Shown: positions 3,367-62,446 of the stretch, piece by piece | Numbering within the stretch: position 1 is the first letter of the stretch | How the letters are laid out: each line of letters begins with the position of its first letter | NCBI GenBank assembly: GCA_910584635.1 | Contig: CAJUBA010000001.1 | Span: 108,176-172,175 of the forward strand | DNA length: 64,000 bases | DNA from: an uncultured Christensenella sp. | Lineage (GTDB): Bacteria > Bacillota > Clostridia > Christensenellales > UBA3700 | Reading direction: 5' to 3' | The notes under the pieces: generated by a model | Databases searched by the model: none | What the model was told of the DNA's origin: nothing | Seen by the model: only the letters and a program-made list of their open reading frames with translations | Position numbers and translations under genes: made by a program

Positions 3367-3509
3367 TTCAACCTCGCGTATTTTTATATACAATATATTA
3401 TACTCTGTTGCCAAATTACTGTCAATTCAAACGTATTTATCTACATATTTTGGAAGCGAGAGCAAGCATAAATTAAATTTGTTGGCATACAATACCTAAT
3501 GAGGAAATT

Positions 3510-4332: not shown

Positions 4333-4361
4333 TTGACAAGAAAAAAAGTCGGTATTATAAT
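4333..4361 (+). promoter_or_regulatory. consensus sigma-A promoter for the thrS leader
   Basis: TTGACA at 4333-4338, a 17-nt spacer, then TATAAT at 4356-4361. Confidence 0.8.
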
Positions 4362-4646: not shown

Positions 4647-6584
4647 ATGAAAGTTACGCTGAAAGACGGAAGCGTCAGAGAGTTTAGCGAGGGAATGAGC
4701 GTTTACGAAATAGCCAAAGAAATTTCCGAAGGTTTGGCAAGAGCGACGCTCGGAGCAAAACTTAACGGAAAAGTAGTCGAAACAAGAACTATTGTCAACG
4801 AAGACTGTAAATTGGAGTTGCTCACTTTTGCTGACGACGAAGGAAAACTTATTTACAGACATACGGCTTCGCATATTCTTGCGCAAGCGATTAAAAATAT
4901 CTTTCCGACGGTAAAACTTGCCATAGGACCGGCTATCGCCAACGGTTTTTATTATGATTTTGATTTCAAAACGCCTATTTCTACCGACGAGTTTAATAAG
5001 ATAGAGCAGGAGATGAAAAACATCATAAAAGCCAACTATCCTATCACCAGATTCGTTTTGCCAAAAGACGAGGCTGTCAAACTCATGGCGGGATACGGAG
5101 AAGATTATAAGGTAGAACTTATAAACGACCTTCCCGAAGGCGAGGAAATATCCTTCTATAAACAAGGAGATTTTGTAGATTTGTGCGCGGGACCGCATTT
5201 GCCGTTTACCGGTATGGTTAAAGCGTTTAAGTTGACGAGTCTTACGGGAGCGTATTGGAGAGGCAATGAGAAGAACAAAATGCTTTCCAGAATATACGGC
5301 ACAGCTTTTGATAAGAAATCCGAATTGCAAGAGTATCTTCTCGCGGTAGAAGAAGCCAAAAAGAGAGATCACAACAAACTCGGCAGAGAAATGGGTATAT
5401 TTATGACCGACGAAAATATCGGTCAGGGATTGCCGTTACTCATGCCTAAGGGAGCGAAACTGTTCCAAATTCTTCAAAGATTCGTAGAAGACGAGGAAGA
5501 AAGAAGAGGATACGTGCTTACCAAGACCCCATATATGGCGAAATCCAATCTGTATAAAATATCCGGACACTGGGACCATTATCTTGACGGGATGTTCGTC
5601 ATAGGCGACGAAAAAAAGGACGATGAAGTATTCGCTTTGCGTCCGATGACCTGTCCTTTCCAATATACAATCTACAACAACGGTTTGAAGTCTTACAGAG
5701 ATTTGCCTATTAGATACGGCGAAACTTCTACGCTGTTCAGAAATGAAGCGTCGGGCGAGATGCACGGTCTTATAAGAGTAAGACAGTTTACTTTGTCCGA
5801 AGGACATATCGTTTGCACGCCCGAACAACTTGAAAACGAGTTTAGAGGCGTCGTAGATCTTATCAAGTACATGCTGAAATGCACGGGACTTGAAAACGAC
5901 GTAACGTATAGATTCAGCAAGTGGGACCCCGCCGATACCGAAAAGTATATTAACGAACCCGAAATATGGGAAATGGCTGAAGATACTATGAGAAAAATCC
6001 TCGACAATATAGGATTGGATTACGTCGAGGCAAAGGGCGAGGCGGCTTTCTACGGTCCAAAACTCGATATTCAAATCAAAAACGTTTATGGAAAAGAGGA
6101 TACGATAATTACCGTACAGGTAGATATGTTCCTTGCGGAGAATTTCGATATGTCTTATATCGACGAAAACGGCGAAAAGAAAAGACCTTATATTATCCAC
6201 AGATCGTCAATCGGCTGTTATGAAAGAACTATGGCGTTGATGATAGAAAAATTTGCGGGCGCGTTCCCGGTATGGGCAAGTCCCGTACAGGTAAAAGTTA
6301 TCAGTCTTACAGATCGTACTGTAGACGAGTGTAATAAGATAAACGAAAAACTCAGAGCGATGGGAATCAGGGCGGAAGTCGATTCTCGTAGCGAAACGGT
6401 AGGATACAAGATAAGATCCGCGCAGTTGGAAAAAGTTCCTTATATGCTGATAATAGGCGACAAGGAAGTGGAAAACGGCGTAGTTGCGGTAAGACGCAGA
6501 GGCGGCGTAGTGATGGGAGAGATGTCTTTCGCGCAGTTTGCCGAAATAGTGCTTGAAGACGTCGCAAGCAAGCGGTTGGACTAA
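4647..6584 (+). CDS. thrS: threonine--tRNA ligase
   Basis: N-terminal TGS domain (MKVTLKDGSVREF), the editing-domain motif HTASHILAQA, and a class II core (FRNEASGEMHGLIRVRQFT...). The ATG at 4647 behind GAGGTG is preferred over the GTG at 4638. Confidence 0.97.
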   Translation: MKVTLKDGSVREFSEGMSVYEIAKEISEGLARATLGAKLNGKVVETRTIVNEDCKLELLTFADDEGKLIYRHTASHILAQAIKNIFPTVKLAIGPAIANGFYYDFDFKTPISTDEFNKIEQEMKNIIKANYPITRFVLPKDEAVKLMAGYGEDYKVELINDLPEGEEISFYKQGDFVDLCAGPHLPFTGMVKAFKLTSLTGAYWRGNEKNKMLSRIYGTAFDKKSELQEYLLAVEEAKKRDHNKLGREMGIFMTDENIGQGLPLLMPKGAKLFQILQRFVEDEEERRGYVLTKTPYMAKSNLYKISGHWDHYLDGMFVIGDEKKDDEVFALRPMTCPFQYTIYNNGLKSYRDLPIRYGETSTLFRNEASGEMHGLIRVRQFTLSEGHIVCTPEQLENEFRGVVDLIKYMLKCTGLENDVTYRFSKWDPADTEKYINEPEIWEMAEDTMRKILDNIGLDYVEAKGEAAFYGPKLDIQIKNVYGKEDTIITVQVDMFLAENFDMSYIDENGEKKRPYIIHRSSIGCYERTMALMIEKFAGAFPVWASPVQVKVISLTDRTVDECNKINEKLRAMGIRAEVDSRSETVGYKIRSAQLEKVPYMLIIGDKEVENGVVAVRRRGGVVMGEMSFAQFAEIVLEDVASKRLD

Positions 6585-19022: not shown

Positions 19023-20498
19023 ATGATAGAAGTAAATTTTTATACAAACGCGCAAGAATTTGAAAATGAATATTTAGATATAGTCCGCGCTTTTTATCCT
19101 CACGTAAAGATAGATGAAAGCGCAGATACGCTAGAACTTAATTTGGAAAAATCAAGCGAGTATGAGTTTCACGCAAAGATATCGTTCAAAGACAAAGCGA
19201 AAGAGTACAGATATTTGCTGGAAAAAGAGTTTTTGGAAGAAAACGATTGCGATTGCAGGCAGATAAAATATAAAGCGCAGGTCAAAAGGCACAGCAAAGC
19301 CGCGCTTTATAAGTTTTTATCTGAAATCACCGGAGAAAAATTGCCGTACGGTTCGCTTACCGGTATTCGTCCTACAAAATTATTTCACGAAACAGTAGAA
19401 AAGGGAATAGACGCGGAAAAATATTTTCTCGAAGTATTGGACGTTTCAAGGCAAAAAGTTTCGCTTATCAAAAATATCGTTGAAAATCAAAAGATTTATT
19501 ACAAAGTCGCCGAGAACGAAGTCGATATTTTCGTAAATATACCAATTTGCGTATCTAGGTGCGTATATTGCTCGTTTATTTCCGCTCAACTCGATAAGAT
19601 AAAAAAATTTGTTTCTCCCTATTGCGATTTGTTGGTAAAAGAAATTCAGGGTTCGCAAGAAATCGTAAAAGAAAACAATTTGAAAGTGCGGAGCGTTTAT
19701 ATAGGAGGAGGTACTCCGACATCGCTTGACAATGAAAATTTCCAAAGAGTGATTCGCGCTTGCTCTGCGTTCGACGTTAAAGAATTTACCGTAGAAGCGG
19801 GTAGACCCGATACAATCACAAGAGAAAAATTGGATATTATGAGCAAGTATGGCGTAACCCGTATTTCAATAAATCCCCAGACGTTTAATCAAAGGACTTT
19901 GGACGCGATAGGCAGGAGTCATAGCGTGGAAGAAATTTACTCGGTATTCAAAATGGCAAGAGATTACGACTTTGATATAAATATGGATTTAATTGCCATG
20001 CTTCCAGGGGAGAACGTGGACGATTTCAAATATTCTGTCGATTGCGCTATTTCTCTTCAACCCGAAAATATTACGGTACATACGCTTGCGATTAAAAAAG
20101 GTTCCGCTTTGAAAATCGACGGATATGAAAACGGAGAATGGGAAAAGGCTGTCGCCATGGTTGATTACGCTTATGAAAGCGTTAAGAGCGCGGGATACGA
20201 GCCGTATTATATGTATAAGCAAAAATATATGTCTGGAAATCTTGAAAACGTAGGCTATTGCAAAAAAGGCAAGGCCTGTGTCTATAACATTGATATTATG
20301 GAAGAAATATCTAGTATCATCGCCAATGGAGCAGGCGGAATTTCAAAACGTATTTTTGATAAAAACAGGTTGGAGCGTCTTGCCGATCCAAAGGGGATTG
20401 ACGTGTATATTCAAAGGGATAAGGCGCTTATTGACGTCAAGAAAAAGTTTTTTGAACAGTGTTCAAAACTTGAAATTAAAAGGTTTGCGCTCAAATAA
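19023..20498 (+). CDS. HemZ-like radical SAM protein (oxygen-independent coproporphyrinogen oxidase family)
   Basis: CVSRCVYCSF radical SAM cluster motif and a HemN-like body (YIGGGTPTSL). Its position after relA-dtd-MBL is common in Clostridia. Confidence 0.65.
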   Translation: MIEVNFYTNAQEFENEYLDIVRAFYPHVKIDESADTLELNLEKSSEYEFHAKISFKDKAKEYRYLLEKEFLEENDCDCRQIKYKAQVKRHSKAALYKFLSEITGEKLPYGSLTGIRPTKLFHETVEKGIDAEKYFLEVLDVSRQKVSLIKNIVENQKIYYKVAENEVDIFVNIPICVSRCVYCSFISAQLDKIKKFVSPYCDLLVKEIQGSQEIVKENNLKVRSVYIGGGTPTSLDNENFQRVIRACSAFDVKEFTVEAGRPDTITREKLDIMSKYGVTRISINPQTFNQRTLDAIGRSHSVEEIYSVFKMARDYDFDINMDLIAMLPGENVDDFKYSVDCAISLQPENITVHTLAIKKGSALKIDGYENGEWEKAVAMVDYAYESVKSAGYEPYYMYKQKYMSGNLENVGYCKKGKACVYNIDIMEEISSIIANGAGGISKRIFDKNRLERLADPKGIDVYIQRDKALIDVKKKFFEQCSKLEIKRFALK

Positions 20499-20712
20499 TC
20501 GCTCGCCGAACATAATAGAATATTAGTTAATTTTGAATTATTAAAATATTAACATAAGTAAGAAAATATTTATTATATTTTATTCGAAACGCTTGCTAAC
20601 GAACACAAATTGTGTTAATATAAATGTATTCTAACGCGACTAGGTTTGACAAAAACTCCGATGTCTTACTTGGTTGGCGCTAAATTTATTTTCCAAAGAA
20701 GGAGGCTAAACA

Positions 20713-20991
20713 ATGGAAATTATCAACGTAAAGGAAATGACAAAGCAGGAAGTTATCGCAAATTTTGCAAAGCATGAAGGCGACACCGGCTCGCCGGAAG
20801 TTCAAATCGCGCTTTTGACGCAGAGAATTCTTCAACTCAACGATCACTTTGCAGAACACAAAAACGACTTCCATTCCAGAAGAGGTTTGTTGCAGATGGT
20901 AGGTAAGAGAAGAAGTATGTTGAAGTATCTTAAAGATGCGGATATAGAGCGTTACCGTGAATTGATTGCAAAACTCGGAATCAGAAAGTAA
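20713..20991 (+). CDS. rpsO: 30S ribosomal protein S15
   Basis: [21 protein letters not shown]...[27 protein letters not shown]. Confidence 0.95.
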
Positions 20992-20998
20992 AATAAGA

Positions 20999-21027
20999 TG
21001 GGGCGTCATTCAGCGTCCCATTTTTTT
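20999..21027 (+). terminator. intrinsic terminator after rpsO
   Basis: TGGGGCGTC ATTCA GCGTCCCA followed by TTTTTTT. Confidence 0.7.
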
Positions 21028-21125
21028 GAAATTTCTTTTATTTATCGGCGTTTGGACAAGCATTTTATTTTATGCTCAAGCGCGTTGTTCAAGATTAAAT
21101 TACTAATTATTGGAGGTTAGTTTAG

Positions 21126-23207
21126 ATGATAGAAAGAAAAATTTTTACCACACAGATCGGCGGAAGAGAAGTAAGTATCGAAACCGGCGCTTATTGTGGA
21201 CTCAGCAACGGTAGTTGTATCGTAAGATGCGGAGATACCGCGGTTATGGTCAACGCTACTATGGCTAAAACTCCCAGAGACGGAATAGACTTTTTCCCGC
21301 TCGGAGTAGATTATGAAGAAAAGATGTACGCCGTAGGCAAGATTCCGGGGGGATTCAAGAAGCGCGAAGGACGCGCAAGCGACAAGGCGATTTTGACGTC
21401 AAGACTTATTGACAGACCTCTTCGTCCGCTTTTCCCAAAGGGCTTTTTCAACGACGTTGCGGTAGTCGCAACCGCGTTGTCCGTAGACCCCAACATTCCG
21501 CCGGAAGTTTACGCTATGATAGGTAGTTCCGTTGCGTTGAGCATTTCGGATATTCCGTTTGCAGGACCGACAGGTTCGGTTATCGTAGGTTACGTAGACG
21601 GTCAGTACGTTATCAATCCGGATACGGAGCAAAGAGAGAAGTCCAAACTTCATCTTTCTCTTAGCGGAACAAAAGAAGCGATACTCATGGTTGAAGCGGG
21701 AGCAAACGAACTTACCGAAGACGAAATGATTGGCGCTATTTTGTTCGGACATGAAGAAATTAAGAAGATTGTTGAATTTATAGACGAAATTCAGGCTCAG
21801 ATAGGTAAAGAAAAGGTAGTTCCCGAACTTTATCATCCGCAACCCGAAATCGAATCGGCGGTCAAAGAGTATGCGGACAAGATGATGGACGACGTACTTG
21901 ACAATTTCAACAGGCAGGACAGAGATAAAGCGGAAGACGCTCTCGATAAAGACGTATTTGCTCATTTTGCAGAGATTTTCCCTGACGGAAAGAAAGATAT
22001 TGCAGAAACTCTTTACGCTATGAAGAAAGCGAAAGTAAGAGCAAAGATTCTCGATAAGGGCGTAAGACCAGACGGAAGAAGTCTTGAAGAAATCAGACCG
22101 ATTTGGTGCGAACACGGCGTTTTGCCGAGAGTTCACGGAAGCGGCGTATTTACCAGAGGACAGACTCAGGTTATGACGATTTGTACGCTCGGAAGTCTTT
22201 CCGAAGTTCAGAAACTCGAAGGACTTGACGACGAAGTATGCAAGAGATATATCCATCATTACAATATGCCTCCGTACAGCACGGGCGAGGCTAAACCGCT
22301 CAAAAGTCCGGGCAGAAGAGAAATCGGACACGGCGCTTTGGCTGAAAGAGCGTTGGAACCTATGCTTCCGTCCGTTGAGGCGTTCCCGTACGCTATCCGT
22401 ACCGTTAGCGAAGTAATTTCTTCCAACGGTTCTACTTCTCAGGCGTCTGTTTGCGGATCTACTTTGGCTCTTATGGACGCGGGCGTTCCTATTAAGAAAC
22501 CTGTTGCGGGCGTGGCTATGGGACTTATCAGCAACGAAGATAAATCAAAGATTTCCGTTCTTACGGATATTCAGGGACTTGAAGATTTCTTCGGCGATAT
22601 GGACTTTAAGGTTGCCGGTACAAAAGACGGTATTACCGCTATCCAAATGGATATTAAAATCAAAGGTATAAACGAAGAAATTTTGAGAAAGGCTCTTGCT
22701 CAAGCAAAGAAGGGAAGATTGTTTATTCTTGACAAGATGCTTGAAGTTATGCCCGAAACAAATAAATCTTTGTCTAAATTTGCTCCTAAGATTGTATCTT
22801 TCAGCATTGACCCGAACAAGATTAAAGACGTTATCGGAAGCGGCGGCAAGGTAATCAATAAGATTATCGACGAAACGGGCGTTAAAATCGATATCGATGA
22901 TTTCGGCAACGTTCTCGTATCCGGCGTAGATGAAGAAATGAACGCTAAGGCAAAGAAAATCATTGATTTGATAGTAAACGACCCTGAGGTCGGCGAAGAA
23001 TTCGAAGGCACCGTAGTAAGAATTATGAACTTCGGCGCGTTTGTAGAAATTGCTCCCGGTAAAGACGCGATGATTCATATTTCCAAACTCAAAAAAGAAA
23101 GAGTTGAGAAAGTTGAAGACGTCGTCAACATCGGTGATAAAGTTAAAGTAAAAGTAACAGATATTACCGATAAGGGCGTTGCGTTAAGACTTTTGGAAGT
23201 TTTGTAA
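21126..23207 (+). CDS. pnp: polyribonucleotide nucleotidyltransferase (PNPase)
   Basis: Two RNase PH domains (RPLRPLFP, REIGHGALAERAL), a KH domain (GSGGKVINKI) and an S1 domain (GTVVRIMNFGAFVEI). Confidence 0.97.
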   Translation: MIERKIFTTQIGGREVSIETGAYCGLSNGSCIVRCGDTAVMVNATMAKTPRDGIDFFPLGVDYEEKMYAVGKIPGGFKKREGRASDKAILTSRLIDRPLRPLFPKGFFNDVAVVATALSVDPNIPPEVYAMIGSSVALSISDIPFAGPTGSVIVGYVDGQYVINPDTEQREKSKLHLSLSGTKEAILMVEAGANELTEDEMIGAILFGHEEIKKIVEFIDEIQAQIGKEKVVPELYHPQPEIESAVKEYADKMMDDVLDNFNRQDRDKAEDALDKDVFAHFAEIFPDGKKDIAETLYAMKKAKVRAKILDKGVRPDGRSLEEIRPIWCEHGVLPRVHGSGVFTRGQTQVMTICTLGSLSEVQKLEGLDDEVCKRYIHHYNMPPYSTGEAKPLKSPGRREIGHGALAERALEPMLPSVEAFPYAIRTVSEVISSNGSTSQASVCGSTLALMDAGVPIKKPVAGVAMGLISNEDKSKISVLTDIQGLEDFFGDMDFKVAGTKDGITAIQMDIKIKGINEEILRKALAQAKKGRLFILDKMLEVMPETNKSLSKFAPKIVSFSIDPNKIKDVIGSGGKVINKIIDETGVKIDIDDFGNVLVSGVDEEMNAKAKKIIDLIVNDPEVGEEFEGTVVRIMNFGAFVEIAPGKDAMIHISKLKKERVEKVEDVVNIGDKVKVKVTDITDKGVALRLLEVL

Positions 23208-23226
23208 TCTATATTATGAAATATAA

Positions 23227-23254
23227 AGAAGCGACCGAGCGGCCGCTTCTTTTC
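23227..23254 (+). terminator. intrinsic terminator after pnp
   Basis: AGAAGCGACC GAGC GGCCGCTTCT followed by TTTCG. Confidence 0.7.
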
Positions 23255-23367
23255 GTATTTATTGATTTTTACGGGTAAAAATCGACGTAAAAATTGTTGG
23301 TCTTGACAATATAATTTTCAAGTAATATAATTATATTAACGTAAAACTTACGAAAGGAGATAGAAAA

Positions 23368-24177
23368 ATGTTTTTTGAAGATGAAGAATTTACCAACAAA
23401 AAGCCAGAAGGATCTTTGTATATCGAAAATATCGATAATGACGATTGGTATATCAACGACGGAGTTTTGGAGGAATGCAGAAAAAGCGATGCGGAAGAAA
23501 TGGAAATTCCCGAGGGCGTAACGAGCATAAATACTTACGCGATTATGGACAATTATTCCGTAAAATCTATTCATTTACCCAAAACGGTAAAAAGATTGGA
23601 ATCTACCGGTATCGCAGAATGCGGAAACTTGACGAAAGTGGTCATTGATAATCCCGATATTGAAATAATGGAATGGGGACTGTCCTATAACGAAGCGCTA
23701 AAAGAAGTATATATAGGCGGTAAAAAAGTCGATAGTATAGTCGCTAAGAGATATAGCGACGGAGCAAAGTGCTTTGAGAGATATTTAGGCGAGGGAGAAG
23801 AAATTACCGTTGAAGAAGGCGTAAGACAGATAAATAACAATGCGTTTGAAAACTGTAAAACGCTGACAAAAATAGTTCTTCCCGATACTGTAGACACAAT
23901 ATGCGACAATGCGTTTAACGAATGTGAAAATCTAAGAGAACTGACTTTGGGCGATAACGTAAGAAAAATCGGAGAAAACGCGTTTTATAATTGCGTAAGA
24001 GTAAATGAATTGAGATTGCCTCAAAGCGTTGAAGAAATAGGTAAATACGCGTTTTACGGTTGGGATACAAATCAGACGATTTATGTTCCGAGTAAATTTC
24101 AATCAAAAGGTTTATTTAAGAAGTTATTCAAAGAAAAGTGGCAAGCCGGCTGTAGCGCAAATATTGTTTTCTATTGA
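23368..24177 (+). CDS. BspA-type leucine-rich-repeat (LRR_5-like) protein without a signal peptide, paralogue 1
   Basis: 269 aa with SD AAGGAG. Repeats have the form (I/L)P..V..I...AF..C..L. The acidic N-terminus MFFEDEEF is not followed by a hydrophobic leader. Confidence 0.7.
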   Translation: MFFEDEEFTNKKPEGSLYIENIDNDDWYINDGVLEECRKSDAEEMEIPEGVTSINTYAIMDNYSVKSIHLPKTVKRLESTGIAECGNLTKVVIDNPDIEIMEWGLSYNEALKEVYIGGKKVDSIVAKRYSDGAKCFERYLGEGEEITVEEGVRQINNNAFENCKTLTKIVLPDTVDTICDNAFNECENLRELTLGDNVRKIGENAFYNCVRVNELRLPQSVEEIGKYAFYGWDTNQTIYVPSKFQSKGLFKKLFKEKWQAGCSANIVFY

Positions 24178-24201
24178 TATTGCGTAAAGGGAGGAGAGCA
24201 A

Positions 24202-24942
24202 ATGTTTTTCGAAGACGAGGAATTTTCAGATAATAAAAGCGATTTTAACGAAGATGCGGAAGTAGTTTCGGATTTTAATTTGGACGACGACAAGTGGACG
24301 ATAGAGGAAGGAGCGTTAGATTCCTTTCACGATTTTGATGCAAAGGAAGTATGTGTGCCGGAAGGCGTAACCGAAATAGAGTCGTACGCTTTTTTGTTTA
24401 TGAGCGAACTTAAAGCGATATATTTTCCTAAAACTGTAAAAGAACTTTGGGAAGACGCGGTAGGCGGCTGCGACAAATTGACCAAACTCGTTTTCGAAAA
24501 CGCAAACGTCAAGTTTGAAGTTAACTCTATATCCTGTAATGAGTTTTTGGAAGAAGTATATATAGGCGGAGAAAAGAAAGACGTTATTTACTCAACGTCT
24601 GACGATAATAAGCGGTATCTTGAAAAATATCTTGGAGTAGACAGTGAATTTTCTATTGAAGATGGAATATACGGCATCAGTTCTTACGCTTTTGCCAATC
24701 GCAAGTCGCTTTTCGAGTTGAATATTCCCGATTCCGTAGAATTTATTGATAACAACGCTTTTGAGAACTGTACTAATATTAAAGAACTCAAATTGCCGAA
24801 TACCGGCGTATTAAGCATTAGACCCTACGCGTTTAGAGGTTGGACGGAAAATCAAACGATTTACGCTCCGAGTTTTCTCAAAGGTATAAAGTTTTTCCAA
24901 AAGTGGCGTAAGGGATGCAAAGCCAACGTGATATATTATTAA
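24202..24942 (+). CDS. BspA-type leucine-rich-repeat (LRR_5-like) protein without a signal peptide, paralogue 2
   Basis: 246 aa with SD GGGAGGAG. It has the same MFFEDEEF start, the same repeat layout and the same C-terminal ...GC.AN(I/V)..Y ending as the upstream gene. Confidence 0.7.
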   Translation: MFFEDEEFSDNKSDFNEDAEVVSDFNLDDDKWTIEEGALDSFHDFDAKEVCVPEGVTEIESYAFLFMSELKAIYFPKTVKELWEDAVGGCDKLTKLVFENANVKFEVNSISCNEFLEEVYIGGEKKDVIYSTSDDNKRYLEKYLGVDSEFSIEDGIYGISSYAFANRKSLFELNIPDSVEFIDNNAFENCTNIKELKLPNTGVLSIRPYAFRGWTENQTIYAPSFLKGIKFFQKWRKGCKANVIYY

Positions 24943-25023
24943 ATTCTCAATAGGCGGAGATTAAAGCAATTAGCGTTAGTATAATATGGATTTTCATTGC
25001 ATATCTTTTTTTGAGGTGTGTAA

Positions 25024-25746
25024 ATGAAGAAGTACAGGAGAATTACAAGCGCAGTAACAAATATAATCATTATAGTAATGCTGATAAGCCTTACCGTAGT
25101 AAGTTTCAGCGGTCAGTATTCGTCTTTCGTATCTTTGAACGCGAACGACAGACCGTATTATAAAGGTAATCCGACGAGAGGCGAAGTCGCTCTTATGATA
25201 AACGTATACTGGGGTACGGAATATCTGGACGATATGCTCCAAGTGTTGGAGAATCATAATGCGAAATGCACGTTTTTTGTCGGCGGCAGTTGGGCGAGTA
25301 AAAACAGTGAGTATTTGGAGAAGATGATTGAAAAGGGACACGAGATTGGTAATCACGGTTATTTTCACAAAGATCACGCTAAACTGAATTACGCGCAAAA
25401 CGAAAGCGAAATCAAGTCTAATAACGTGCTTGTTAACGGACTTACAGGCTATAAAATGACTTTGTTTGCTCCGCCGTCGGGAAGTTTTAACGATATAACG
25501 CTCAAAGTGGCGGCAGATTTGGGAATGCAGACGATTATGTGGAGCAGAGATACCATTGACTGGCGAGACAAAGACAGTTCGCTGGTATTCAGTCGTGCGA
25601 CTAATAAAGTAACGGCGGGAGATATGATTCTCATGCACCCGACAGCGCATACTTTGGCGGCGTTGGGAGAGATATTATCTTTCTATGAGGAGAATAATTT
25701 AACTCCCGTAACGGTATCTCAAATAATCAAGCAAGAGATTATTTAG
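25024..25746 (+). CDS. sporulation-type polysaccharide deacetylase (PdaB/YlxY-like, NodB fold)
   Basis: N-terminal TM helix, then LMINVYWGTEYL, TFFVGG, GHEIGNHGYFH and ILMHP. The position after pnp mirrors B. subtilis ylxY. Confidence 0.75.
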   Translation: MKKYRRITSAVTNIIIIVMLISLTVVSFSGQYSSFVSLNANDRPYYKGNPTRGEVALMINVYWGTEYLDDMLQVLENHNAKCTFFVGGSWASKNSEYLEKMIEKGHEIGNHGYFHKDHAKLNYAQNESEIKSNNVLVNGLTGYKMTLFAPPSGSFNDITLKVAADLGMQTIMWSRDTIDWRDKDSSLVFSRATNKVTAGDMILMHPTAHTLAALGEILSFYEENNLTPVTVSQIIKQEII

Positions 25747-25901
25747 ATAGCATAAATAAAACAAACTTGTTTATTGTCGACAAAAGTCGGCAATAAATTT
25801 TATATCGTAATATAGGCAAGCGTTACTAATATACTTTACTATTGATAATAATTATTGTAGAATAATATTAAATTGACTTTGTCGAAGATGGAGATTATAT
25901 T

Positions 25902-27155
25902 ATGAACAAGATACACAGATTTTCAAGCGGACTTCGTCTGGCGTATAAATACTCGCCGTCGGTCAGATCGGTAGGAATAGCGGTAATGACCGGAGTAGGC
26001 AGCGGGAATGAAACAAAGGATAATAACGGCATTTCCCATTTTATCGAACACATGTATTTCAAAGGCACAAAGGATAAGAGCGCTTTTGAGATAGTGGAGT
26101 ACGTGGACGGAATAGGCGCGCAGATAAACGCGTTTACGTCTAAACAGACTACTTGTTTTTACACGCTGTCTATCGACACCCAAGCGGAAAATTGCGCTAA
26201 AATATTAAGCGAAATTTTGTTTGAATCCACGTTTGACGAAAGCGAAATGGAGAGAGAAAAAGGCGTCGTGTTGGAAGAAATATCTATGTGCGAAGACGAT
26301 AACTCCGACGTGGTATTGGATTTGCTTGCAGAAGGATATTTTGGTAAGAATCCACTCGGTATGACTATTTTGGGAGAGAGGAAAAACGTTAAGAATTTTA
26401 CAAGACATGATTTGCTCGATTATATTTCGAACAATTATTGCGCGGAAAGCAGCGTTGTGTCGATAGTGGGAAATATTTCGTTTGAAAAAGCCAAAGAACT
26501 GTGCGAAAAATATTTTGAAGGCAAATTTTCTTGCAATTGCAATCGCGACTGGCGCGATATAAATCACAAGACGCAGAGAAGCGTTAAGAGCAAGTTTAAG
26601 GACATCGAACAGTCGAATATCGCAATAGGTTTTCCCGCTTTTGAATATGGCAGCAAGTATACTATGGCGGAATTGTTGGTAAATACTATTGTCGGCGGAG
26701 GAATGAGTTCAAGACTCTTTCAGGAAGTCAGAGAAAAAAGAGGTTTGGCTTATAACGTATACACTTATAATTCTTCTTATATCAACAACGGACTGTTGTC
26801 GCTGTATATAGGTACGAACGTTGAATCAGTAAAAAAAGCCGTTGACTGCACTTTGGATCTTATCGAAGAATTGAGAAAGAACGGACTTACCAAAAGAGAG
26901 TTGGAAAGAGGAATAGAACAACTTAAAGGTTCTTACGTTTTGGGACAGGAGAGTACCGGAATGATGATGAGAGTAAACGCAAAAAACACGCTGTTTGCCG
27001 ATAAAATTTTCGATATAGACGAGAAAATAAAGGAGATTGAAAATATTACTATCGAACAGACCAAAGACGTAATCGACTATTCGTACGATATAACTAAGGC
27101 AAGTATAGCGTATATAGGTAAAAAACCTAAATGCGATATAGATAAGTTGATTTGA
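25902..27155 (+). CDS. M16-family zinc peptidase (MlpA/YmxG-like)
   Basis: HFIEHMYFKG (the inverted HxxEH zinc motif) and an insulinase-like two-domain length of 417 aa. Confidence 0.85.
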   Translation: MNKIHRFSSGLRLAYKYSPSVRSVGIAVMTGVGSGNETKDNNGISHFIEHMYFKGTKDKSAFEIVEYVDGIGAQINAFTSKQTTCFYTLSIDTQAENCAKILSEILFESTFDESEMEREKGVVLEEISMCEDDNSDVVLDLLAEGYFGKNPLGMTILGERKNVKNFTRHDLLDYISNNYCAESSVVSIVGNISFEKAKELCEKYFEGKFSCNCNRDWRDINHKTQRSVKSKFKDIEQSNIAIGFPAFEYGSKYTMAELLVNTIVGGGMSSRLFQEVREKRGLAYNVYTYNSSYINNGLLSLYIGTNVESVKKAVDCTLDLIEELRKNGLTKRELERGIEQLKGSYVLGQESTGMMMRVNAKNTLFADKIFDIDEKIKEIENITIEQTKDVIDYSYDITKASIAYIGKKPKCDIDKLI

Positions 27156-27190
27156 CAAATCGGAACAGATTAACTGTATAGGGCGGGATA

Positions 27191-27216
27191 AAGATAGGCA
27201 AGCCTATCTTTTTTCG
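27191..27216 (+). terminator. intrinsic terminator after the M16 peptidase gene
   Basis: AAGATAGG CAAG CCTATCTT followed by TTTTCG. Confidence 0.7.
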
Positions 27217-27419
27217 TATAATATGGAGTAAAAAGGGGTATTTAGTCAAAAAATATGGGCAAAAACGGTATTAGATGTATAAATATTTACACATTTCGAG
27301 ACTTGATAAGGTAAAATCGTTTTTGAGACCGCTTTATTATAATAATAATTGAATTAAAAATATTGTAATTCAATGTATGATGTGGTATAATCTAACATGA
27401 GATTATAAGGAGAAATTCA

Positions 27420-30400
27420 ATGCCAAAAGGTTACGAAGATAACAATCAAAATAAGAGGGCGAAATCAAACCGTACGAACGGAATAGTAATTACTATTATT
27501 TTTGTTGCAATGGACTTGATTTTGTTGGGCGTATTCGGAAAAGCGGGAGAAGTCCTCGTAGACTTTTTCGTCGGAGTGTTCGGTTACGCTATATACGGAT
27601 ACAGTTTTGCGATGACGTTGGTAGGGGTATTGATGTGTCTTAACGTCAAACCTAAGCAGAACGCAAAGATAATTTTACTTTACGTCGCTATTGCGGTATT
27701 GGTAATTATTTTTGCTCATATTCTTGTTTCGCGCGCCTATACTCAAAACGGTTGGGGAAATTATATAAGTCAATCCTATAAAAGCGCGAATACTGCAGGA
27801 GGCGCGATTGCGAGCATATTCCTTTATCCGTTCGCGATGAAGAAAATCTATATACTCAGTCTGGTTGCCAACGGAATTCTTGCTACAGGACTTATCGTGA
27901 TAGCGGTATTGTTGCAAGTAAATATAGATATAAATTTAGAAAGATTTACTCGAAAAAAATATAAAAAGATATCCAGCGGTCAAAATGAGAACGTAGGAAT
28001 GTTTGACGTCGACTATCAATCGGAAAACGTAGTCAATCTCAACAATCACACTGTTGACGGTAAAGATATGGGCGACAGTCTGTACGCAAAGGGCAGAAGA
28101 AAGAACAGTTTGGATAATTATGTTCCTATAGACAGAATTAACGTGTCGGAGGAGCAGGATTTTGATATTTACAGCAATAATTTTGTCGGCGAAGACGCTC
28201 AACTTATTTTGGATACCAACGAAATCAGAAACGAAGCGGACAGACCGGATTTGATTTATGCAAGCGAGGACATAGACAGTATTGACAGAACGGTGGACAT
28301 TTCCCTCGCTCAAAAAGAGATATTCGGGATAGACGGTTTCGGCAAAATGAACGTTATCGACGAAGGAAAACAGGAATCGCCCATAGAAAATATTCCGTCG
28401 CAAAAGGAAAACTCATATACTCAAAATTACGACGCATCCAGATACGCAGGGTTTTCCACCAGCGAAAGATTGCGCATCATGGCTGAAAACGAAAGAAGAA
28501 GCAAACAAAACGCTTCGGGTAATGATTTTAGGGCGTCGGAAAACCATACTACAGGCTCTCAACAGAGTTTCGGCGAGAAGATAAGCGAAATTTTGAATAA
28601 AAAACCGTCTTACAAAGCGGAAGAAAACGAGCGTAAAAGCCAACCTATCGAACGAATTACGTTTGATACGCAGCCTGAACCGACTGTTAAATCTGAAAAA
28701 GCGGCTGATTTCGACTTCAAGGCTTTGAAGAACGGTAACAACGTAAACGCGGATAAAAAAGAGGACGAGGTTGTAAAATCCGATACCGAAAAAGTTCAGG
28801 ATAAGACTGAAACAAAAGAAATAGAGTCGATGGACGATTTTATCGCCAATATCAACAGGCAGAAAAAGCAGGAAGATACGCCTCAAATCAAAAACTACGA
28901 CGCTACTAAAAACGTAGAAATCAAGGCGGAGAAGGCTCAGCCTACCGACGGTTATTTCCAAAAGACTTTCGAACCTAAGCCTATTACGCCAAAACAGCCG
29001 ATAGTTCCCAAGACTCCGGTAAACAAAATCGAAGAAAAGCCGGTTAAGAAGGAAGAAACCGAAAAGAAAGAGGAAAAACCCAAAGAGAAAATCAAGAGAA
29101 GTCCTTATATTCCGCCGAGCGTAGATAATCTTAAAGATTATATAGATAAGAGCGATTATCAAGAAGACTTCAACGCTAAGGCGAAAATCATCGAAGAAAC
29201 CTATGCCGATTTCGGAATAGACGTATGCGTAAAAAATATCGTCAGCGGACCTACGGTAACAAGATTCGAGTTTGAAGTTCTCTCCAAGATAGACGTTCAA
29301 CTTATCCGTAAAAAGGCGGACAACCTTTTGATGTATCTTGCGGTAACGTCGATAAGAATCGAAGCGCCGATACCGGGTAAATCGCTTTGCGGTATTGAAA
29401 TACCTAACGCTAAGAGAAAAACGGTCGGATTGAAAGAGTTTATCGAAAACGAAGAATTCAAGAGCAAGAGCGACGGATTGTATTTTGCGCTCGGTAAAGA
29501 CGTAGATAATAACTGTCATTTTGAAGATCTTACCGATTTCCCGCACGGACTTATAGCAGGCGGAACGGGTAGCGGTAAATCAGTATGTCTTAACACTATG
29601 CTGTGTTCTTTGGTATACAAGTATTCGCCTGAAGAATTGAGAATAGTATTGGTCGATCCGAAAAGAGTAGAATTCGGTCAGTACAGAGGACTTCCGCATT
29701 TGCTTACTCCGCAAATTTACAACACGCCAAAAGAATCTTTGGTAATTCTCAGATGGTTGGTTGAGGAAATGTCTAGAAGATATTCTTTGTTCGAAACTTA
29801 CGGAGTGAATAAATTGCCTACTTTTAATATGCTCGACGAAGTAATAGCCGAAGATAAGAAATTGCCTTATATTGTCGCTATCATAGACGAGGTAGGCGAT
29901 ATAATGGTCAGCGAATACGCGAAAGAATTCGAAACGCTCGTAATCACTTTGGCACAGAAAGCGCGCGCGAGCGGTATACACTTGATTCTTGCTACACAAA
30001 GACCTTCGGTAGACGTCATAACGGGACTTATAAAGAGTAACTTGCCTACGCGTATAGCGTTTGCCGTTGCTTCCGGAGTGGACAGTAAAACTATTTTGGA
30101 TACCGTCGGAGCGGAAGAACTTCTCGGTAAAGGCGATATGCTTATAAAGACGAGAAAGTTGTCCAAGCAACTTGAAAGATTGCAAAATCCGTTTGTAGAC
30201 GATATTGAAATCAAAAATATCATGTCCGATATAATCAAGCACAATCAGGCTTATTACGACGAGAGCGTAGAAAACAGAATAAAAGAAATGTCCGAGCCGC
30301 CTAAGACGGAAGAGAGCGTAAATCCCAAAGATATTAAGGAATTCGATTTTCCGGACGACCTTATTCCCGACGTTTTGAGAAAAATCGCGGGATCGGATAA

Positions 30401-41135: not shown

Positions 41136-41726
41136 ATGTGGCGCATTTATTTGTTATTTTCATTATTATTGACGATATATATCGGATTAGTTATTCTGGC
41201 TTATGGAATAAAAACTACCGTAAGAATTGACGTAAATAATCTAAGTTTGTGTGTAAAGATATTTATATTCGATTGGATTGAAGTTTTTTGTTTCAAGATT
41301 TTTGTCAGCGAACAGCAATTTTATTATCAGATAAATAAGAAAGATATAAAATTATTTGAAAGAAAAGGACAAGATAGAAAAAGTAAAAAGAAAAGTAGAA
41401 AAATTAGGATTTTTTCATATTTATATTACGCAATCGAAAAAGCGCCGAAAATTATTGTTTATAATCCCGTTATAAAATATGGCGCGGAGTTTGAAGAGAT
41501 TAAAAATAAAGCGCTGTTTGACGGGGGAGTTTCGGCTGCCGTATATACTGCTGCGGGAGTATTATACGATAAGTTGGAATTAAAGAATTTGACATTGCAG
41601 AATATCGGCGGTGCAACTTCTCTCAAAGGATTATATTTAGAAGGCGCTTTGAAGTTTTCACTATTAAAAATATTTTTTTATTTCTTACACATAATATCGG
41701 TGAAAAGGCGTTTTCAAACAGCGTAA
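41136..41726 (+). CDS. DUF2953/YtfI-like membrane protein
   Basis: N-terminal TM helix and a Lys-rich segment, immediately upstream of a ytfJ/gerW homologue as in B. subtilis ytfI-ytfJ. The call is largely positional. Confidence 0.4.
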   Translation: MWRIYLLFSLLLTIYIGLVILAYGIKTTVRIDVNNLSLCVKIFIFDWIEVFCFKIFVSEQQFYYQINKKDIKLFERKGQDRKSKKKSRKIRIFSYLYYAIEKAPKIIVYNPVIKYGAEFEEIKNKALFDGGVSAAVYTAAGVLYDKLELKNLTLQNIGGATSLKGLYLEGALKFSLLKIFFYFLHIISVKRRFQTA

Positions 41727-55438: not shown

Positions 55439-55515
55439 CGGGGTGTAGCGCAGTTTGGTAGCGCACGTGGTTTGGGACCATGGGGCCGGGAGTTCGAATC
55501 TCTTCACCCCGACCA
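55439..55515 (+). tRNA. tRNA-Pro (anticodon UGG)
   Basis: Hand-folded cloverleaf. Acceptor stem CGGGGTG/CACCCCG. Anticodon loop TTTGGGA. T-arm GGGAGTTCGAATCTCTT. Encoded CCA. Confidence 0.93.
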
Positions 55516-55537
55516 GATCGCAAAGCGCAAATTGTGT

Positions 55538-55614
55538 GGGCCATTAGCTCAGTTGGTTAGAGCAACCGGCTCATAACCGGTCGGTCCAAGGTTCGAGTCC
55601 TTGATGGCCCACCA
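55538..55614 (+). tRNA. tRNA with CAU anticodon (Met, or lysidine-modified Ile2; the body resembles Ile2)
   Basis: Acceptor stem GGGCCAT/ATGGCCC. Anticodon loop CTCATAA. Encoded CCA. The D-arm AGCTCAGTTGGTTAGAGC resembles Bacillus tRNA-Ile(CAU). Confidence 0.9.
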
Positions 55615-55643
55615 CATAATATAATAAATATTAAATGGAATTT

Positions 55644-55720
55644 GGCTCGGTAGTTCAGTTGGTTAGAACGCTAGCCTGTCACGCTAGAGGTCGAGGGTTC
55701 GAGTCCCTTCCGAGTCGCCA
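55644..55720 (+). tRNA. tRNA-Asp (anticodon GUC)
   Basis: Acceptor stem GGCTCGG/CCGAGTC. Anticodon loop CTGTCAC. Encoded CCA. Confidence 0.93.
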
Positions 55721-55772
55721 ACAAATTTAATATACTTCTGAATTTTGAGATTTTTATAATCTCTTAATTTAT

Positions 55773-55848
55773 GCCTCGGTAGCTCAGTCGGTAGAGCAGG
55801 GGACTGAAAATCCCCGTGTCGGTGGTTCGATTCCGCCCCGAGGCACCA
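55773..55848 (+). tRNA. tRNA-Phe (anticodon GAA)
   Basis: Acceptor stem GCCTCGG/CCGAGGC. Anticodon loop CTGAAAA. Encoded CCA. Confidence 0.93.
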
Positions 55849-55864
55849 TGCCTATACGGTGTGC

Positions 55865-55940
55865 GCTGGTGTAGCTCAATAGGCAGAGCAGCTGATTTGT
55901 AATCAGCAGGTTGTTGGTTCGATTCCGATCACCAGCTCCA
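55865..55940 (+). tRNA. tRNA-Thr (anticodon UGU)
   Basis: Acceptor stem GCTGGTG/CACCAGC. Anticodon loop TTTGTAA. Encoded CCA. Confidence 0.92.
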
Positions 55941-55951
55941 AAATTAAATAT

Positions 55952-56036
<85 letters not shown>

Positions 56037-56491: not shown

Positions 56492-56725
56492 ATTATTATA
56501 TATTTTGTCGAGAGTCGTCGCATACTAACTAAACCATAAGACGAACAATATGTTAAATATTTTGATTAGGTTTTATCATTTATGATTTTTTTCAACTTCT
56601 GTCATTTTGATATATTTATTGGATTGCAAATATGCGCCCGCAACGATAGCGTATAGGACTACATTTGCAATTAATGATTAAATACGTTATAATGATTTAT
56701 AATAAACATTATTTTGTGGAGAATT

Positions 56726-57235
56726 ATGATAATTTTAATATCAGGCGCGACGCATACGGGAAAAACTGCATTGGCTCAGCGTTTGTTGGAAAAATACAAA
56801 TTTCCTTATTTGTCAATCGACCATTTGAAAATGGGATTGATAAGAAGCGGGCAAACGTCATTAAGCGTATGCGATGATAAAAATCTTATACCTTATCTTT
56901 GGTCTATCGTTAAAGAGATAATCAAAACGGCGATAGAAAATGAACAAAATCTGGTTGTAGAAGGCTGTTATATTCCGTTTGATTGGGAAAAAGATTTTGA
57001 AAAAGAGTATTTATCGCAAATTAGATATTATTGCTTGATTATGAGTAAAGAATATATTAAAAATAACTATTCGACGATTTTATCTCATGAAAATATAATA
57101 GAAAAGAGATTAGCCGGTGATTTTACGCAAGATGAATTGATTATAGAAAATCAAAATAATCTGCAAATGTGTAAAAAATACTCGTTAAATTATATATTGA
57201 TTGATACAAAATATAAACTCGATATTGAATTATAA
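56726..57235 (+). CDS. small P-loop NTPase/kinase-like protein (2-phosphoglycerate-kinase-like / AAA-kinase fold)
   Basis: Walker A ISGATHTGKTALA at the N-terminus and VVEGCYIP in the position of a Walker B-like strand. It has its own promoter (TTGCAA 56665-56670, 17 nt, TATAAT 56688-56693). The ATG at 56726 is preferred over the TTG at 56714. Confidence 0.6.
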   Translation: MIILISGATHTGKTALAQRLLEKYKFPYLSIDHLKMGLIRSGQTSLSVCDDKNLIPYLWSIVKEIIKTAIENEQNLVVEGCYIPFDWEKDFEKEYLSQIRYYCLIMSKEYIKNNYSTILSHENIIEKRLAGDFTQDELIIENQNNLQMCKKYSLNYILIDTKYKLDIEL

Positions 57236-61732: not shown

Positions 61733-62446
61733 ATGCTTGATTACGAAACTACCTTAAAATTGTTGGAACTTGCCAAAAACGGCGACGACGACGCAAAAGG
61801 CAAGTTGATAAACTCAAATATGCCGTTGATAAAGAGTATTGCAAGACGGTATCGGAATAAGCAAGTCGAATACGACGACCTGTTGCAGTTGGGCGCTTTG
61901 GGATTGGTAAAAGCAATAAACAACTTCGATTGTTCTTACAATGTTAAGTTTTCAACTTATGCGGTACCCATGATTGCGGGAGAAATAAAAAGGTTTATAA
62001 GAGACGACGGATCTATAAAGGTTTCTCGCGCAATGAAAAGTCTTTGCTCTAAAATACAGAGTTATCTCAACGAGCAATATGCGCAAAATAACACGCCTTC
62101 GATTAAAAATATAGCCGAACATTTCGGAATCGACGAGCAGGAAGTTGTTTTTGCGATGGATAGCAACAAATATCCCGTATCTATTTTTGAAAAATATGAG
62201 GACGATAACAATCAGTGCGTCATGGATAAACTCGCTTCCAACGAGAATAACGACGACGTTATCAACAAAATATTATTGAAAGATTATATAAATTCTCTTC
62301 CCGAAAGGGAGAAGAAGGTAATAATACTAAGATATTACAGGGATAAGACTCAAAGCGAAATAGCGCAACTTTTAGGCGTGTCGCAAGTGCAAATTTCGCG
62401 GATAGAAAGCAAGGTTATAAGCCAGTTGAAGCAAGCGCTGGCTTGA
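61733..62446 (+). CDS. sigF: RNA polymerase sporulation sigma factor SigF
   Basis: Sigma-70 regions 2-4 (DDLLQLGALGLVKAINNFD, FSTYAVPMIAGEIKRFIRDD, QSEIAQLLGVSQVQISRIE) directly after spoIIAB. Confidence 0.9.
   Translation: MLDYETTLKLLELAKNGDDDAKGKLINSNMPLIKSIARRYRNKQVEYDDLLQLGALGLVKAINNFDCSYNVKFSTYAVPMIAGEIKRFIRDDGSIKVSRAMKSLCSKIQSYLNEQYAQNNTPSIKNIAEHFGIDEQEVVFAMDSNKYPVSIFEKYEDDNNQCVMDKLASNENNDDVINKILLKDYINSLPEREKKVIILRYYRDKTQSEIAQLLGVSQVQISRIESKVISQLKQALA

Follow-up and report, generated by a model that had tools for sequence, protein, structure and literature searches.

A lineage-restricted family of small, leaderless BspA-type leucine-rich repeat proteins between pnp and a polysaccharide deacetylase gene in uncultured gut Clostridia

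We have analyzed a stretch of 64,000 nucleotides (hereafter the window) of the genome of an uncultured Christensenella sp. (assembly GCA_910584635.1, contig CAJUBA010000001.1, positions 108,176 to 172,175 of the forward strand), in which two adjacent genes coding for BspA-type leucine-rich repeat (LRR) proteins are found between pnp and a polysaccharide deacetylase gene. The first, LRR-A (23368-24177, + strand), codes for a protein of 269 amino acids (aa) and the second, LRR-B (24202-24942, +), for one of 246 aa. In both cases the start codon is the first possible one past an in-frame stop, so that a longer N-terminus is impossible, and a Shine-Dalgarno (SD) sequence can be read upstream, AAAGGAG (23353-23359, +) for LRR-A and GGGAGGAG (approximately 24189-24196, +) for LRR-B. 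A first-pass annotation, made from the sequence alone, had described with exactly these coordinates a tandem pair with strong SDs, a common MFFEDEEF start and a common GC.AN(I/V)..Y end, and the open reading frames (ORFs), the SDs and the BLASTP alignment all agree with that description. LRR-A and LRR-B are members of a lineage-restricted subfamily of small BspA-type LRR_5 solenoids that consist of the repeat domain only. The repeat family and the fold were already known, but the subfamily is new and has not been described before; our literature searches (PF13306/LRR_5 in bacteria, leaderless BspA-like proteins) retrieved nothing on it.

Both proteins were matched by the Pfam LRR_5 model (PF13306) in two stretches each, LRR-A with 132 bits (E 1.5e-38) and LRR-B with 88.8 bits (E 3.6e-25), values far above the gathering threshold of 27.7 bits, and LRR_5/LRR_8 were the only Pfam domains detected in the pair. 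The two proteins are 38% identical over their full length by BLASTP (E 3e-59; 43% in MAFFT alignments), the alignment including MFFEDEEF at the N-terminus as well as ...W..GC.AN(I/V)..Y at the C-terminus. LRR-B is shorter by exactly one 23-aa repeat, which appears as an alignment gap. LRR-A begins with an acidic tail that is disordered (residues 1-14, MFFEDEEF...), which is followed by a beta-hairpin N-cap, three LRR_5 repeats, a central family-specific insert (VYIGG...CFERYLG), four further repeats and a basic C-cap (...KWQAGCSANIVFY). LRR-B has the same layout with one 23-aa repeat fewer, and its acidic tail, also disordered, is longer (residues 1-22). The isoelectric points (pI) are 4.63 for LRR-A and 4.40 for LRR-B. 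The AlphaFold models had a predicted local distance difference test score (pLDDT) of 92.1 and a predicted template modeling score (pTM) of 0.85 for LRR-A, and of 90.0 and 0.84 for LRR-B, with only residues 1-14 and 1-22, respectively, below a pLDDT of 50. Both models are regular solenoids of short, evenly spaced beta-strands in which the acidic N-tails are the only disordered part, and the repeats and caps take up the whole chain. The best PDB match of LRR-A by Foldseek was 4gt6 (E 1.3e-10, TMq 0.67), followed by 4cp6 (PcpA), 4fs7 and 6mlx (TpLRR); LRR_5 entries of the PDB were also matched by sequence, with E values from 7e-44 to 1e-13. The profile search and the confidently predicted solenoids confirm what had been read from the repeats, namely that LRR-A and LRR-B belong to the BspA-type LRR_5 family and are paralogues in tandem.

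The pair is found downstream of the intrinsic terminator of pnp (23225-23252, +), a 12-bp GC-rich palindromic stem between T and A runs that marks the upstream boundary of the cassette. The terminator scan listed it on the - strand, the stem being palindromic, and a stem-loop of similar sequence appears 3' of pnp at the same position in related loci. After it, and preceding the start codon of LRR-A by 36 nt, there is a perfect consensus promoter of the sigma-A (sigma-70) type, TTGACA-17 nt-TATAAT (23303-23331, +). This is the only 12/12 match within 20400-27500, and over the whole window three exact matches were observed against 0.03 expected. The same TTGACA-17-TATAAT was found at the same place, past the pnp terminator and ahead of the first LRR gene, in loci L004, L006, L017, L021/L025, L023/L024, L027 and L028, with spacer sequences that have diverged among them. 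LRR-A and LRR-B are separated by only 24 nt, so that the two are probably co-transcribed, and the scan reported no promoter or terminator in this spacer. Neither was a terminator detected from LRR-B up to the deacetylase leader; the next one (25769-25798) follows the deacetylase gene. The consensus promoter, the short spacer and the missing terminator together predict that the LRR pair forms its own sigma-A transcription unit, from which there may be read-through into the deacetylase gene.

The downstream boundary is the leader of the deacetylase gene (24979-25018, +), which reads GTATAAT, 14 nt, CATATCTT, a run of T and then GAGGTG as SD. In the alignment of 16 loci the motif was TCATAAA or GTATAAT, approximately 14 nt, CATA(C/T)(A/C)TT and then TTGAGGTGTGT-ATG, and it was common to sites with and without LRR genes, as was also apparent in the alignment with the empty site of L030. 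The motif resembles a sigma-E-type promoter. The ylxY gene of Bacillus subtilis has been reported to be sigma-E dependent (PMC9332280), with which a sigma-E-like leader of the deacetylase gene would fit. The LRR cassette is thus flanked by the terminator of pnp on one side and by the putative promoter of the deacetylase gene itself on the other. An RNA hairpin over the deacetylase SD and AUG (z -2.7 in the window) was also considered and rejected as a regulatory structure, since it was not conserved across the 16 loci (-0.03 kcal/mol, no covariation). The deacetylase itself (25024-25746, +) has an N-terminal membrane anchor and matched Pfam Polysacc_deac_1 with 100 bits; its best NCBIfam match was TIGR02873 spore_ylxY, with 202 bits, under the cut-off of 391.5. 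The position of the pair, between the pnp terminator and a ylxY-like deacetylase gene, is therefore the one that had been annotated. The gene order of the window is MBL hydrolase, radical-SAM, rpsO, pnp, LRR-A, LRR-B and polysaccharide deacetylase, followed by M16 peptidase, FtsK/SpoIIIE, pgsA-like, rimO-like, cinA, recA and rny. The M16 peptidase matched the Peptidase_M16 domains, with YfmF/YfmH as best NCBIfam matches, below cut-off. From rpsO to rny, the LRR genes apart, this order agrees with that of B. subtilis, in which pnp and ylxY are direct neighbors, so that the deacetylase and M16 genes may correspond to ylxY and mlpA of the conserved rpsO-pnp-ylxY-mlpA block of Firmicutes.

In order to learn how the site looks in relatives, one genome per GTDB species was scanned with the deacetylase. 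This yielded 17 loci, all of them from uncultured Clostridia or from metagenome-assembled genomes labelled as Christensenellaceae or Christensenella, and all with the order rpsO-pnp-[X]-deacetylase-M16. LRR family genes were found between pnp and the deacetylase gene in 15 of the 17 species, with one copy in nine species, two in four and three in two (L020 and L027), and pnp and the deacetylase gene were direct neighbors in the other two (L029 and L030). Loci reached through the closest homologues had the same gene order. A single LRR_5 gene coding for 241-242 aa occupies the site in L001/L002, L004 and L006, a pair of 260 and 251 aa is found in L008-L010 and one of 258 and 258 aa in L031-L033, and LRR pairs were also present in L011 and L061. 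L061 holds the exact A+B pair, with proteins 98.9% (A) and 92.7% (B) identical to those of the window. L062 holds an A+B pair as well, with 80% identity for B and 66% for A over the last approximately 100 aa, which are all that L062 has. Among the homologues collected, P0139 (93%) and P0138 (80%) are orthologues of LRR-B.

The two empty sites are of different kinds. In a tree of pnp plus deacetylase, L029 was the outgroup, and L030 was nested among occupied genomes, inside the clade of the window. Besides, L030 has kept both boundaries, the terminator of pnp as well as the conserved leader of the deacetylase gene. The nested position together with the preserved boundary sequences indicates that the empty site of L030 originated by secondary deletion. 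In two other loci (L018, approximately 4930-5070, and L035, approximately 4835-4975) the spacer between pnp and the LRR gene contains a decayed N-terminal remnant of a lost first LRR copy, with stop codons within, which was matched by clade-1 paralogues in tblastn (E 0.003, in a tiny database); we regard it as direct evidence of gene death at this site. The apparent split of the LRR gene of L016 (5192-5918), a GTDB representative, could have been taken for a frameshift or a pseudogene, but is artefactual: bases of this record are masked or ambiguous, and the translation is full of X. The tree of the LRR proteins contains three old paralogue clades that have been differentially lost. All this shows that, in a clade of uncultured gut Clostridia, the subfamily has long resided at this one site, bounded by the pnp terminator upstream and by the deacetylase leader downstream. 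The site evolves by birth and death: genes are duplicated in tandem, whole repeats are gained or lost, and copies decay to remnants or are cleanly deleted.

A member of 302 aa with the same N-cap and C-cap (P0122) was found elsewhere, in L036 (681-1589), where the gene order is QueF, LRR, inorganic pyrophosphatase (split), ComEC and holA, so that the family is not strictly confined to the pnp site. Metagenome contigs scanned with the alignment of the MFFEDEEF clade contained only generic LRR_5 genes, with 21-38% identity, and no member of the clade. A profile search with the family alignment against 1.84 billion representatives gave 444,875 matches at E<=0.001 and did not delimit the subfamily; the best 150 of these matches were all giant multi-repeat LRR_5 proteins of 1,541-7,983 aa.

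The first-pass annotation had proposed that the pair was a later insertion. A recent foreign insertion, i.e., a late horizontal arrival in the conserved pnp/ylxY/mlpA block followed by a local duplication, could invoke the direct neighborhood of pnp and the deacetylase gene in L029 and L030 and in B. subtilis, as well as a cassette that carries its own promoter and a copy number that differs between species. However, the same family is found at the same site in 15 of the 17 species and in further metagenome lineages, the old paralogue clades track the species groups, and the empty site nested among occupied ones keeps terminator and leader, which speaks for a deletion. Neither are the absences patchy when set against the species phylogeny, since they amount to the outgroup L029 and the nested L030, and the paralogue clades fit duplication and loss. 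The comparison of presence and absence across relatives, which that annotation had itself named as the way to decide, goes therefore largely against it.

The composition of the two genes is also native. The GC content across the pair was 0.36-0.40, compared with 0.33-0.50 in the flanks, and the GC content at third codon positions (GC3) was 0.364 in LRR-A and 0.407 in LRR-B, in a window that ranges from 0.295 to 0.492. The argument that had been made from the codons TTA, CTA and TCA stands in one part, as no long antisense ORFs run across the pair, but fails as a sign of insertion. Actually, the frequency of these codons in the pair is typical (26.0 per 1000 codons in LRR-A and 16.3 in LRR-B, against a window median of 18.3 with a standard deviation of 15.5), and it is pnp, deacetylase, M16 and ftsK that are unusually low (4.3-9.6 per 1000 codons), which is the reason why long antisense ORFs are found through these four genes. 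Searches for direct or inverted repeats flanking the cassette gave only paralogous segments and the terminator palindrome. There is no integrase or transposase beside the pair, whose neighbors are pnp and the deacetylase gene, and tRNA genes, as possible targets, are approximately 30 kb away, in a cluster of six (55439-56033, +) that were the only Rfam matches in the whole window. Viral contigs, phage records and BFVD did not contain any family member, only generic LRR_5 resemblances, mostly in large virion-associated proteins. Finally, the synonymous sites between LRR-A and LRR-B are saturated. Taken together, these data largely refute a recent insertion in this genome, which we consider highly improbable.

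The same saturation bears on the local duplication that the annotation had suggested. The two genes are indeed tandem paralogues; a recent duplication, in contrast, does not agree with the saturated sites, with the 4% bootstrap of a clade containing only the A and B of this lineage (neighbor-joining, NJ) or with the presence of an A+B pair in L061 and L062. All the single-copy genes of the MFFEDEEF clade share the loss of one repeat that distinguishes LRR-B. That these single genes lack the same repeat as B suggests an old A/B duplication followed by the loss of A in several lineages. An assignment of the single-copy genes to A or B by the tree was tried and discarded (32% NJ bootstrap), and only the shared repeat loss points to the B-type.

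The subfamily comprises approximately 28 clusters of proteins of 241-302 aa, all leaderless and made of the repeat domain only. Its signature consists of an N-cap LN.DND.W.I.DG.L, an insert VYIGG...CLEKYLG and a C-cap GW..NQTIYVP..FKK.K..Q.WR.GCKA.IIYY, which are the parts conserved beyond the core of the solenoid, and 21 columns are invariant across the family alignment. The identity to the window was 92-97% for polynucleotide phosphorylase (PNPase), 80-91% for the M16 peptidase and 73-92% for the deacetylase, and only 31-47% for the LRR proteins. Over nine genome pairs, the ratio of non-synonymous to synonymous substitutions (dN/dS, Nei-Gojobori) was 0.06-0.41 in the LRR genes, compared with 0.00-0.06 in their three neighbors in the same pairs. 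Such values indicate that the LRR genes are functional and under purifying selection, with the protein changing 5-10 times faster than those of the neighbors. The number of repeats in the loci at the pnp site varied from 7 to 9 and changed by whole 23-aa units; by their length, the members of 302 aa would have room for approximately ten. The entropy per column follows the register of the solenoid, i.e., the core is conserved and all the exposed positions are variable, with 2.0-2.9 bits.

Neutral drift of decaying, functionless duplicates, left over from a once larger surface protein gene, would also produce high divergence, variability over all surface positions, complete loss in two species and a remnant such as that of L018/L035. 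It would hardly leave intact ORFs in more than 20 lineages with dN/dS of 0.06-0.41, nor 21 invariant columns and conserved caps, nor a promoter, an SD and an N-terminal peptide motif that are all conserved, nor a fold predicted with high confidence. Decay is disfavored by the dN/dS values and by the conserved signals, and we give it very little credit.

Electric charge is another regular feature of these proteins. Most members are acidic (pI 4.4-5.1) and the body is acidic or mixed in every member, and the last 35 aa are basic in all of them (+2 to +13). In the sister group (L021, L022, L025, L020, L027 and L018) the second paralogue is basic, with a pI of 8.5-9.1 and a net charge of +4 to +9, and the copy adjoining it is acidic (pI 4.4-4.8), whereas in the window both copies are acidic. 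The opposite charges of adjacent paralogues in the sister group might reflect a heteromeric complex. The synonymous codons used for MFFEDEEF differ between A, B and the orthologues, indicating that it is the peptide and not the DNA that is conserved.

The first-pass annotation had further described both proteins as free of signal peptide, transmembrane (TM) segment and wall anchor, and this was borne out by Pfam and by hydropathy, our test for signal peptides being a Kyte-Doolittle heuristic and not SignalP. The highest mean over 10 residues within the first 45 aa was -0.07 and 0.20 in the two proteins of the window and at most 1.58 among 28 family members, compared with at least 2.4 in homologues with obvious signal or lipoprotein peptides. 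By this heuristic none of the 28 family members has a hydrophobic N-terminal segment. The first 12 aa have a net charge of -2 and -4 in the two window proteins. The hydropathy profile did not detect any TM segment either, the highest mean over 19 residues being at most 1.45 in all these proteins and at most 0.87 in the window pair, and there was no surface-anchoring or extra domain (Big_2, choline-binding, LPXTG, S-layer homology, or type IX secretion system (T9SS) C-terminal domain) in LRR-A or LRR-B according to Pfam and to the structure models.

The literature treats BspA-type LRR proteins nearly always as adhesins of the cell surface, and the first-pass annotation had set the absence of a signal against this. 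Nonetheless, such an absence is not rare in this repeat family, since no hydrophobic N-terminus was seen in 46 of a broader set of 100 LRR_5 homologues. The same holds for the BspA-like proteins of Trichomonas (TvBspA), of which 193 out of 911 have a TM domain and most have neither signal peptide nor TM (PMC2843621). About half of the homologues and the whole subfamily are thus without export signal, against the usual view of these proteins as surface adhesins.

The solved LRR_5 proteins include 4gt6 (a cell-surface protein of Faecalibacterium prausnitzii), 4fs7/4fdw (Bacteroides ovatus), 4h09 (Eubacterium ventriosum), 6mlx (Treponema pallidum TpLRR) and 4cp6 (pneumococcal PcpA). The window proteins share with them the repeat of approximately 23 residues, (I/L)P..V..I...AF..C..L, and the same solenoid fold, and with many other LRR_5 proteins the beta-hairpin N-cap W.I.DG.L..Y at the start. 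However, the solved or characterized proteins are secreted, or anchored to lipid or to the wall, are usually longer (213-405 residues resolved) and often carry extra domains, whereas the pair has no signal or anchor and displays instead the disordered acidic N-tail, the family-specific central insert and the conserved basic C-cap. BspA of Tannerella forsythia and LrrA of Treponema denticola function as adhesins. These two and HupY/LrrG are large, exported and provided with additional domains, unlike the 246-269 aa and LRR-only proteins of the window. The NCBIfam model adhesin_HupY matched one stretch of each of the latter (65.9 and 31.6 bits), far off the equivalog cut-off of 1250 bits. Of the features that would identify a surface adhesin like BspA, LrrA, PcpA, TpLRR or HupY, neither the signal (by the hydropathy heuristic) nor the anchor was found. 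The subfamily also differs from LRR_5 proteins at large in being essentially restricted to one syntenic locus in one clade, the 302-aa member of L036 being located elsewhere. A parallel in evolutionary behavior is offered by the BspA-like families of Trichomonas vaginalis and Entamoeba, which are also of the fast-diversifying TpLRR/BspA type, belong to mucosa-associated organisms and undergo duplication and pseudogenization. Those, though, are eukaryotic, count hundreds of members and are dispersed, while here we find 0-3 bacterial copies at a single conserved site with a sigma-A promoter.

The proteins could still be adhesin-like and reach the surface, or be released, without a classical signal. 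They might take a non-classical route, be set free when cells lyse, or be deposited on the forespore. Proteins of the spore coat and exosporium are deposited from the mother-cell cytoplasm and do not need a signal peptide. All solved or characterized relatives being surface proteins would agree with this, as would the fast evolution and the changes in copy number, which are typical of surface proteins exposed to hosts or phages. Besides, a sporulation sigma factor of the SigF/SigG type is encoded in the window, the neighbors are sporulation-associated, including the ylxY-like deacetylase with its sigma-E-like promoter (PMC9332280), and BspA-like proteins of Entamoeba and Trichomonas are found at the surface although their signals are not recognizable (PMC5349171, PMC2843621). 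On the other hand, the LRR domain fills the proteins of the window, with no signal peptide, lipobox, TM segment or anchor of the wall, choline, S-layer or T9SS type, the promoter matches perfectly the vegetative sigma-A consensus and is not of the sigma-E or sigma-K type, and there are no dedicated secretion genes nearby. We consider export by such a route unlikely.

The sigma factor just mentioned (61733-62446, +) matched TIGR02980 SigBFG with 243.5 bits, above the cut-off of 234.35, and spore_sigF with 271 bits, in this case below the cut-off. Its presence makes it probable that the organism is an endospore former or the descendant of one.

Intracellular use of this repeat type seems to have precedents. 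TIR domains (PF13676 or PF01582) were found in the LRR_5 homologues P0031, P0134, P0215 and P0218, and in P0031 the TIR-like segment stands at the very N-terminus, with nothing like a signal before it. These fusions show that LRR_5 repeats are used together with a domain of the intracellular signaling type as well, although the window pair differs from them in having no effector or signaling domain, nor one encoded adjacent. The four fusions, which come from gut metagenomes, look in their own right like candidate intracellular LRR_5 proteins of the immune type.

In line with such fusions, the variable solenoids might act inside the cell in recognition, as decoys or in immunity against phages or toxins. 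The binding of fast-changing foreign proteins would explain the birth-and-death dynamics, and would go along with an evolution 5-10 times faster than that of the neighbors, with 0-3 copies and changing repeat numbers, with a predicted expression that is probably constitutive and strong, and with the coexistence of basic and acidic paralogues in sister genomes that hints at heteromers. Still, PADLOC found no families for the pair at E<=0.1, and the two matching PHROGs families are both of unknown function. The site is not a known defense island, the neighbors are housekeeping or sporulation genes with no adjacent effector, NTPase, nuclease or toxin gene, the gene-wide dN/dS is well under 1 and the variable positions show no concentration on the concave face. 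A role in conflicts of this kind is in our view doubtful. An even more speculative version, which we hold to be improbable, would see in the site a dedicated hot spot that breeds leaderless, constitutive LRR modules against phage proteins or toxins, some of them forming acidic/basic heterodimers via tails and C-caps. If true, it would represent a previously undescribed, effector-less layer of LRR-based sensing, decoys or inhibitors in Firmicutes.

The explanation that we favor, to which we assign as a whole a probability of about 0.55, combines a vertically inherited, LRR-only subfamily that evolves by birth and death with a role of its products as constitutive, cytoplasmic protein-binding modules. 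The pair would be made constitutively in vegetative cells and, as there is no export signal or anchor, the proteins would in all likelihood remain soluble inside the cell, as protein-binding modules of the cytoplasm. The core of the solenoid and the caps would be held constant, possibly for a conserved partner, and the exposed surface would drift. The acidic-aromatic and disordered MFFEDEEF tail could represent a short linear motif. Its docking site may be a basic surface, for which the conserved C-cap, either of its own chain or of the partner paralogue, is a candidate. An intracellular use of LRR_5 would have in the TIR fusions a precedent by analogy.

Several observations weigh against this explanation. 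The relatives that have been characterized or solved are, without exception, located at the surface or secreted (4gt6, PcpA 4cp6, TpLRR 6mlx and the NCBIfam HupY/LrrG), the lack of an export signal comes from a hydropathy heuristic only, and both the localization and the binding of the pair are predictions. We did not find an excess of variability on the concave face, since the variability is spread over all exposed positions of the repeats; being dispersed, it gives no positive sign of an evolving binding surface, and relaxed constraint would fit equally well. The sigma-A promoter is missing at L001 and L014, and MFFEDEEF is limited to the subclade of the window, other members having unrelated short N-tails. 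Finally, the phylogeny of the MFFEDEEF clade is poorly resolved, with an NJ bootstrap of 32% for the B-type clade.

Whatever the case, the locus offers a clean natural series for the question of intracellular LRR_5 proteins, with a fixed site, 0-3 copies, 7-9 repeats and a conserved strong promoter, and with well-conserved flanking genes that serve as internal controls of evolutionary rate. Otherwise, this is an accessory gene family of uncultured gut Clostridia with no link to a known pathway, and its immediate importance is modest.

Two other features of the window deserve a mention. The ORFs at 41136-41726 (+, 196 aa) and 56714-57235 (+, 173 aa) had no Pfam or NCBIfam match and have the most atypical codons of the window, with 86.7 and 57.8 TTA+CTA+TCA per 1000 codons and a GC3 of 0.296 and 0.295, respectively, so that they look far more foreign than the LRR pair. 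The other two exact matches to TTGACA-17-TATAAT, at 3397-3425 (-) and 4333-4361 (+), face apart with approximately 0.9 kb between them.

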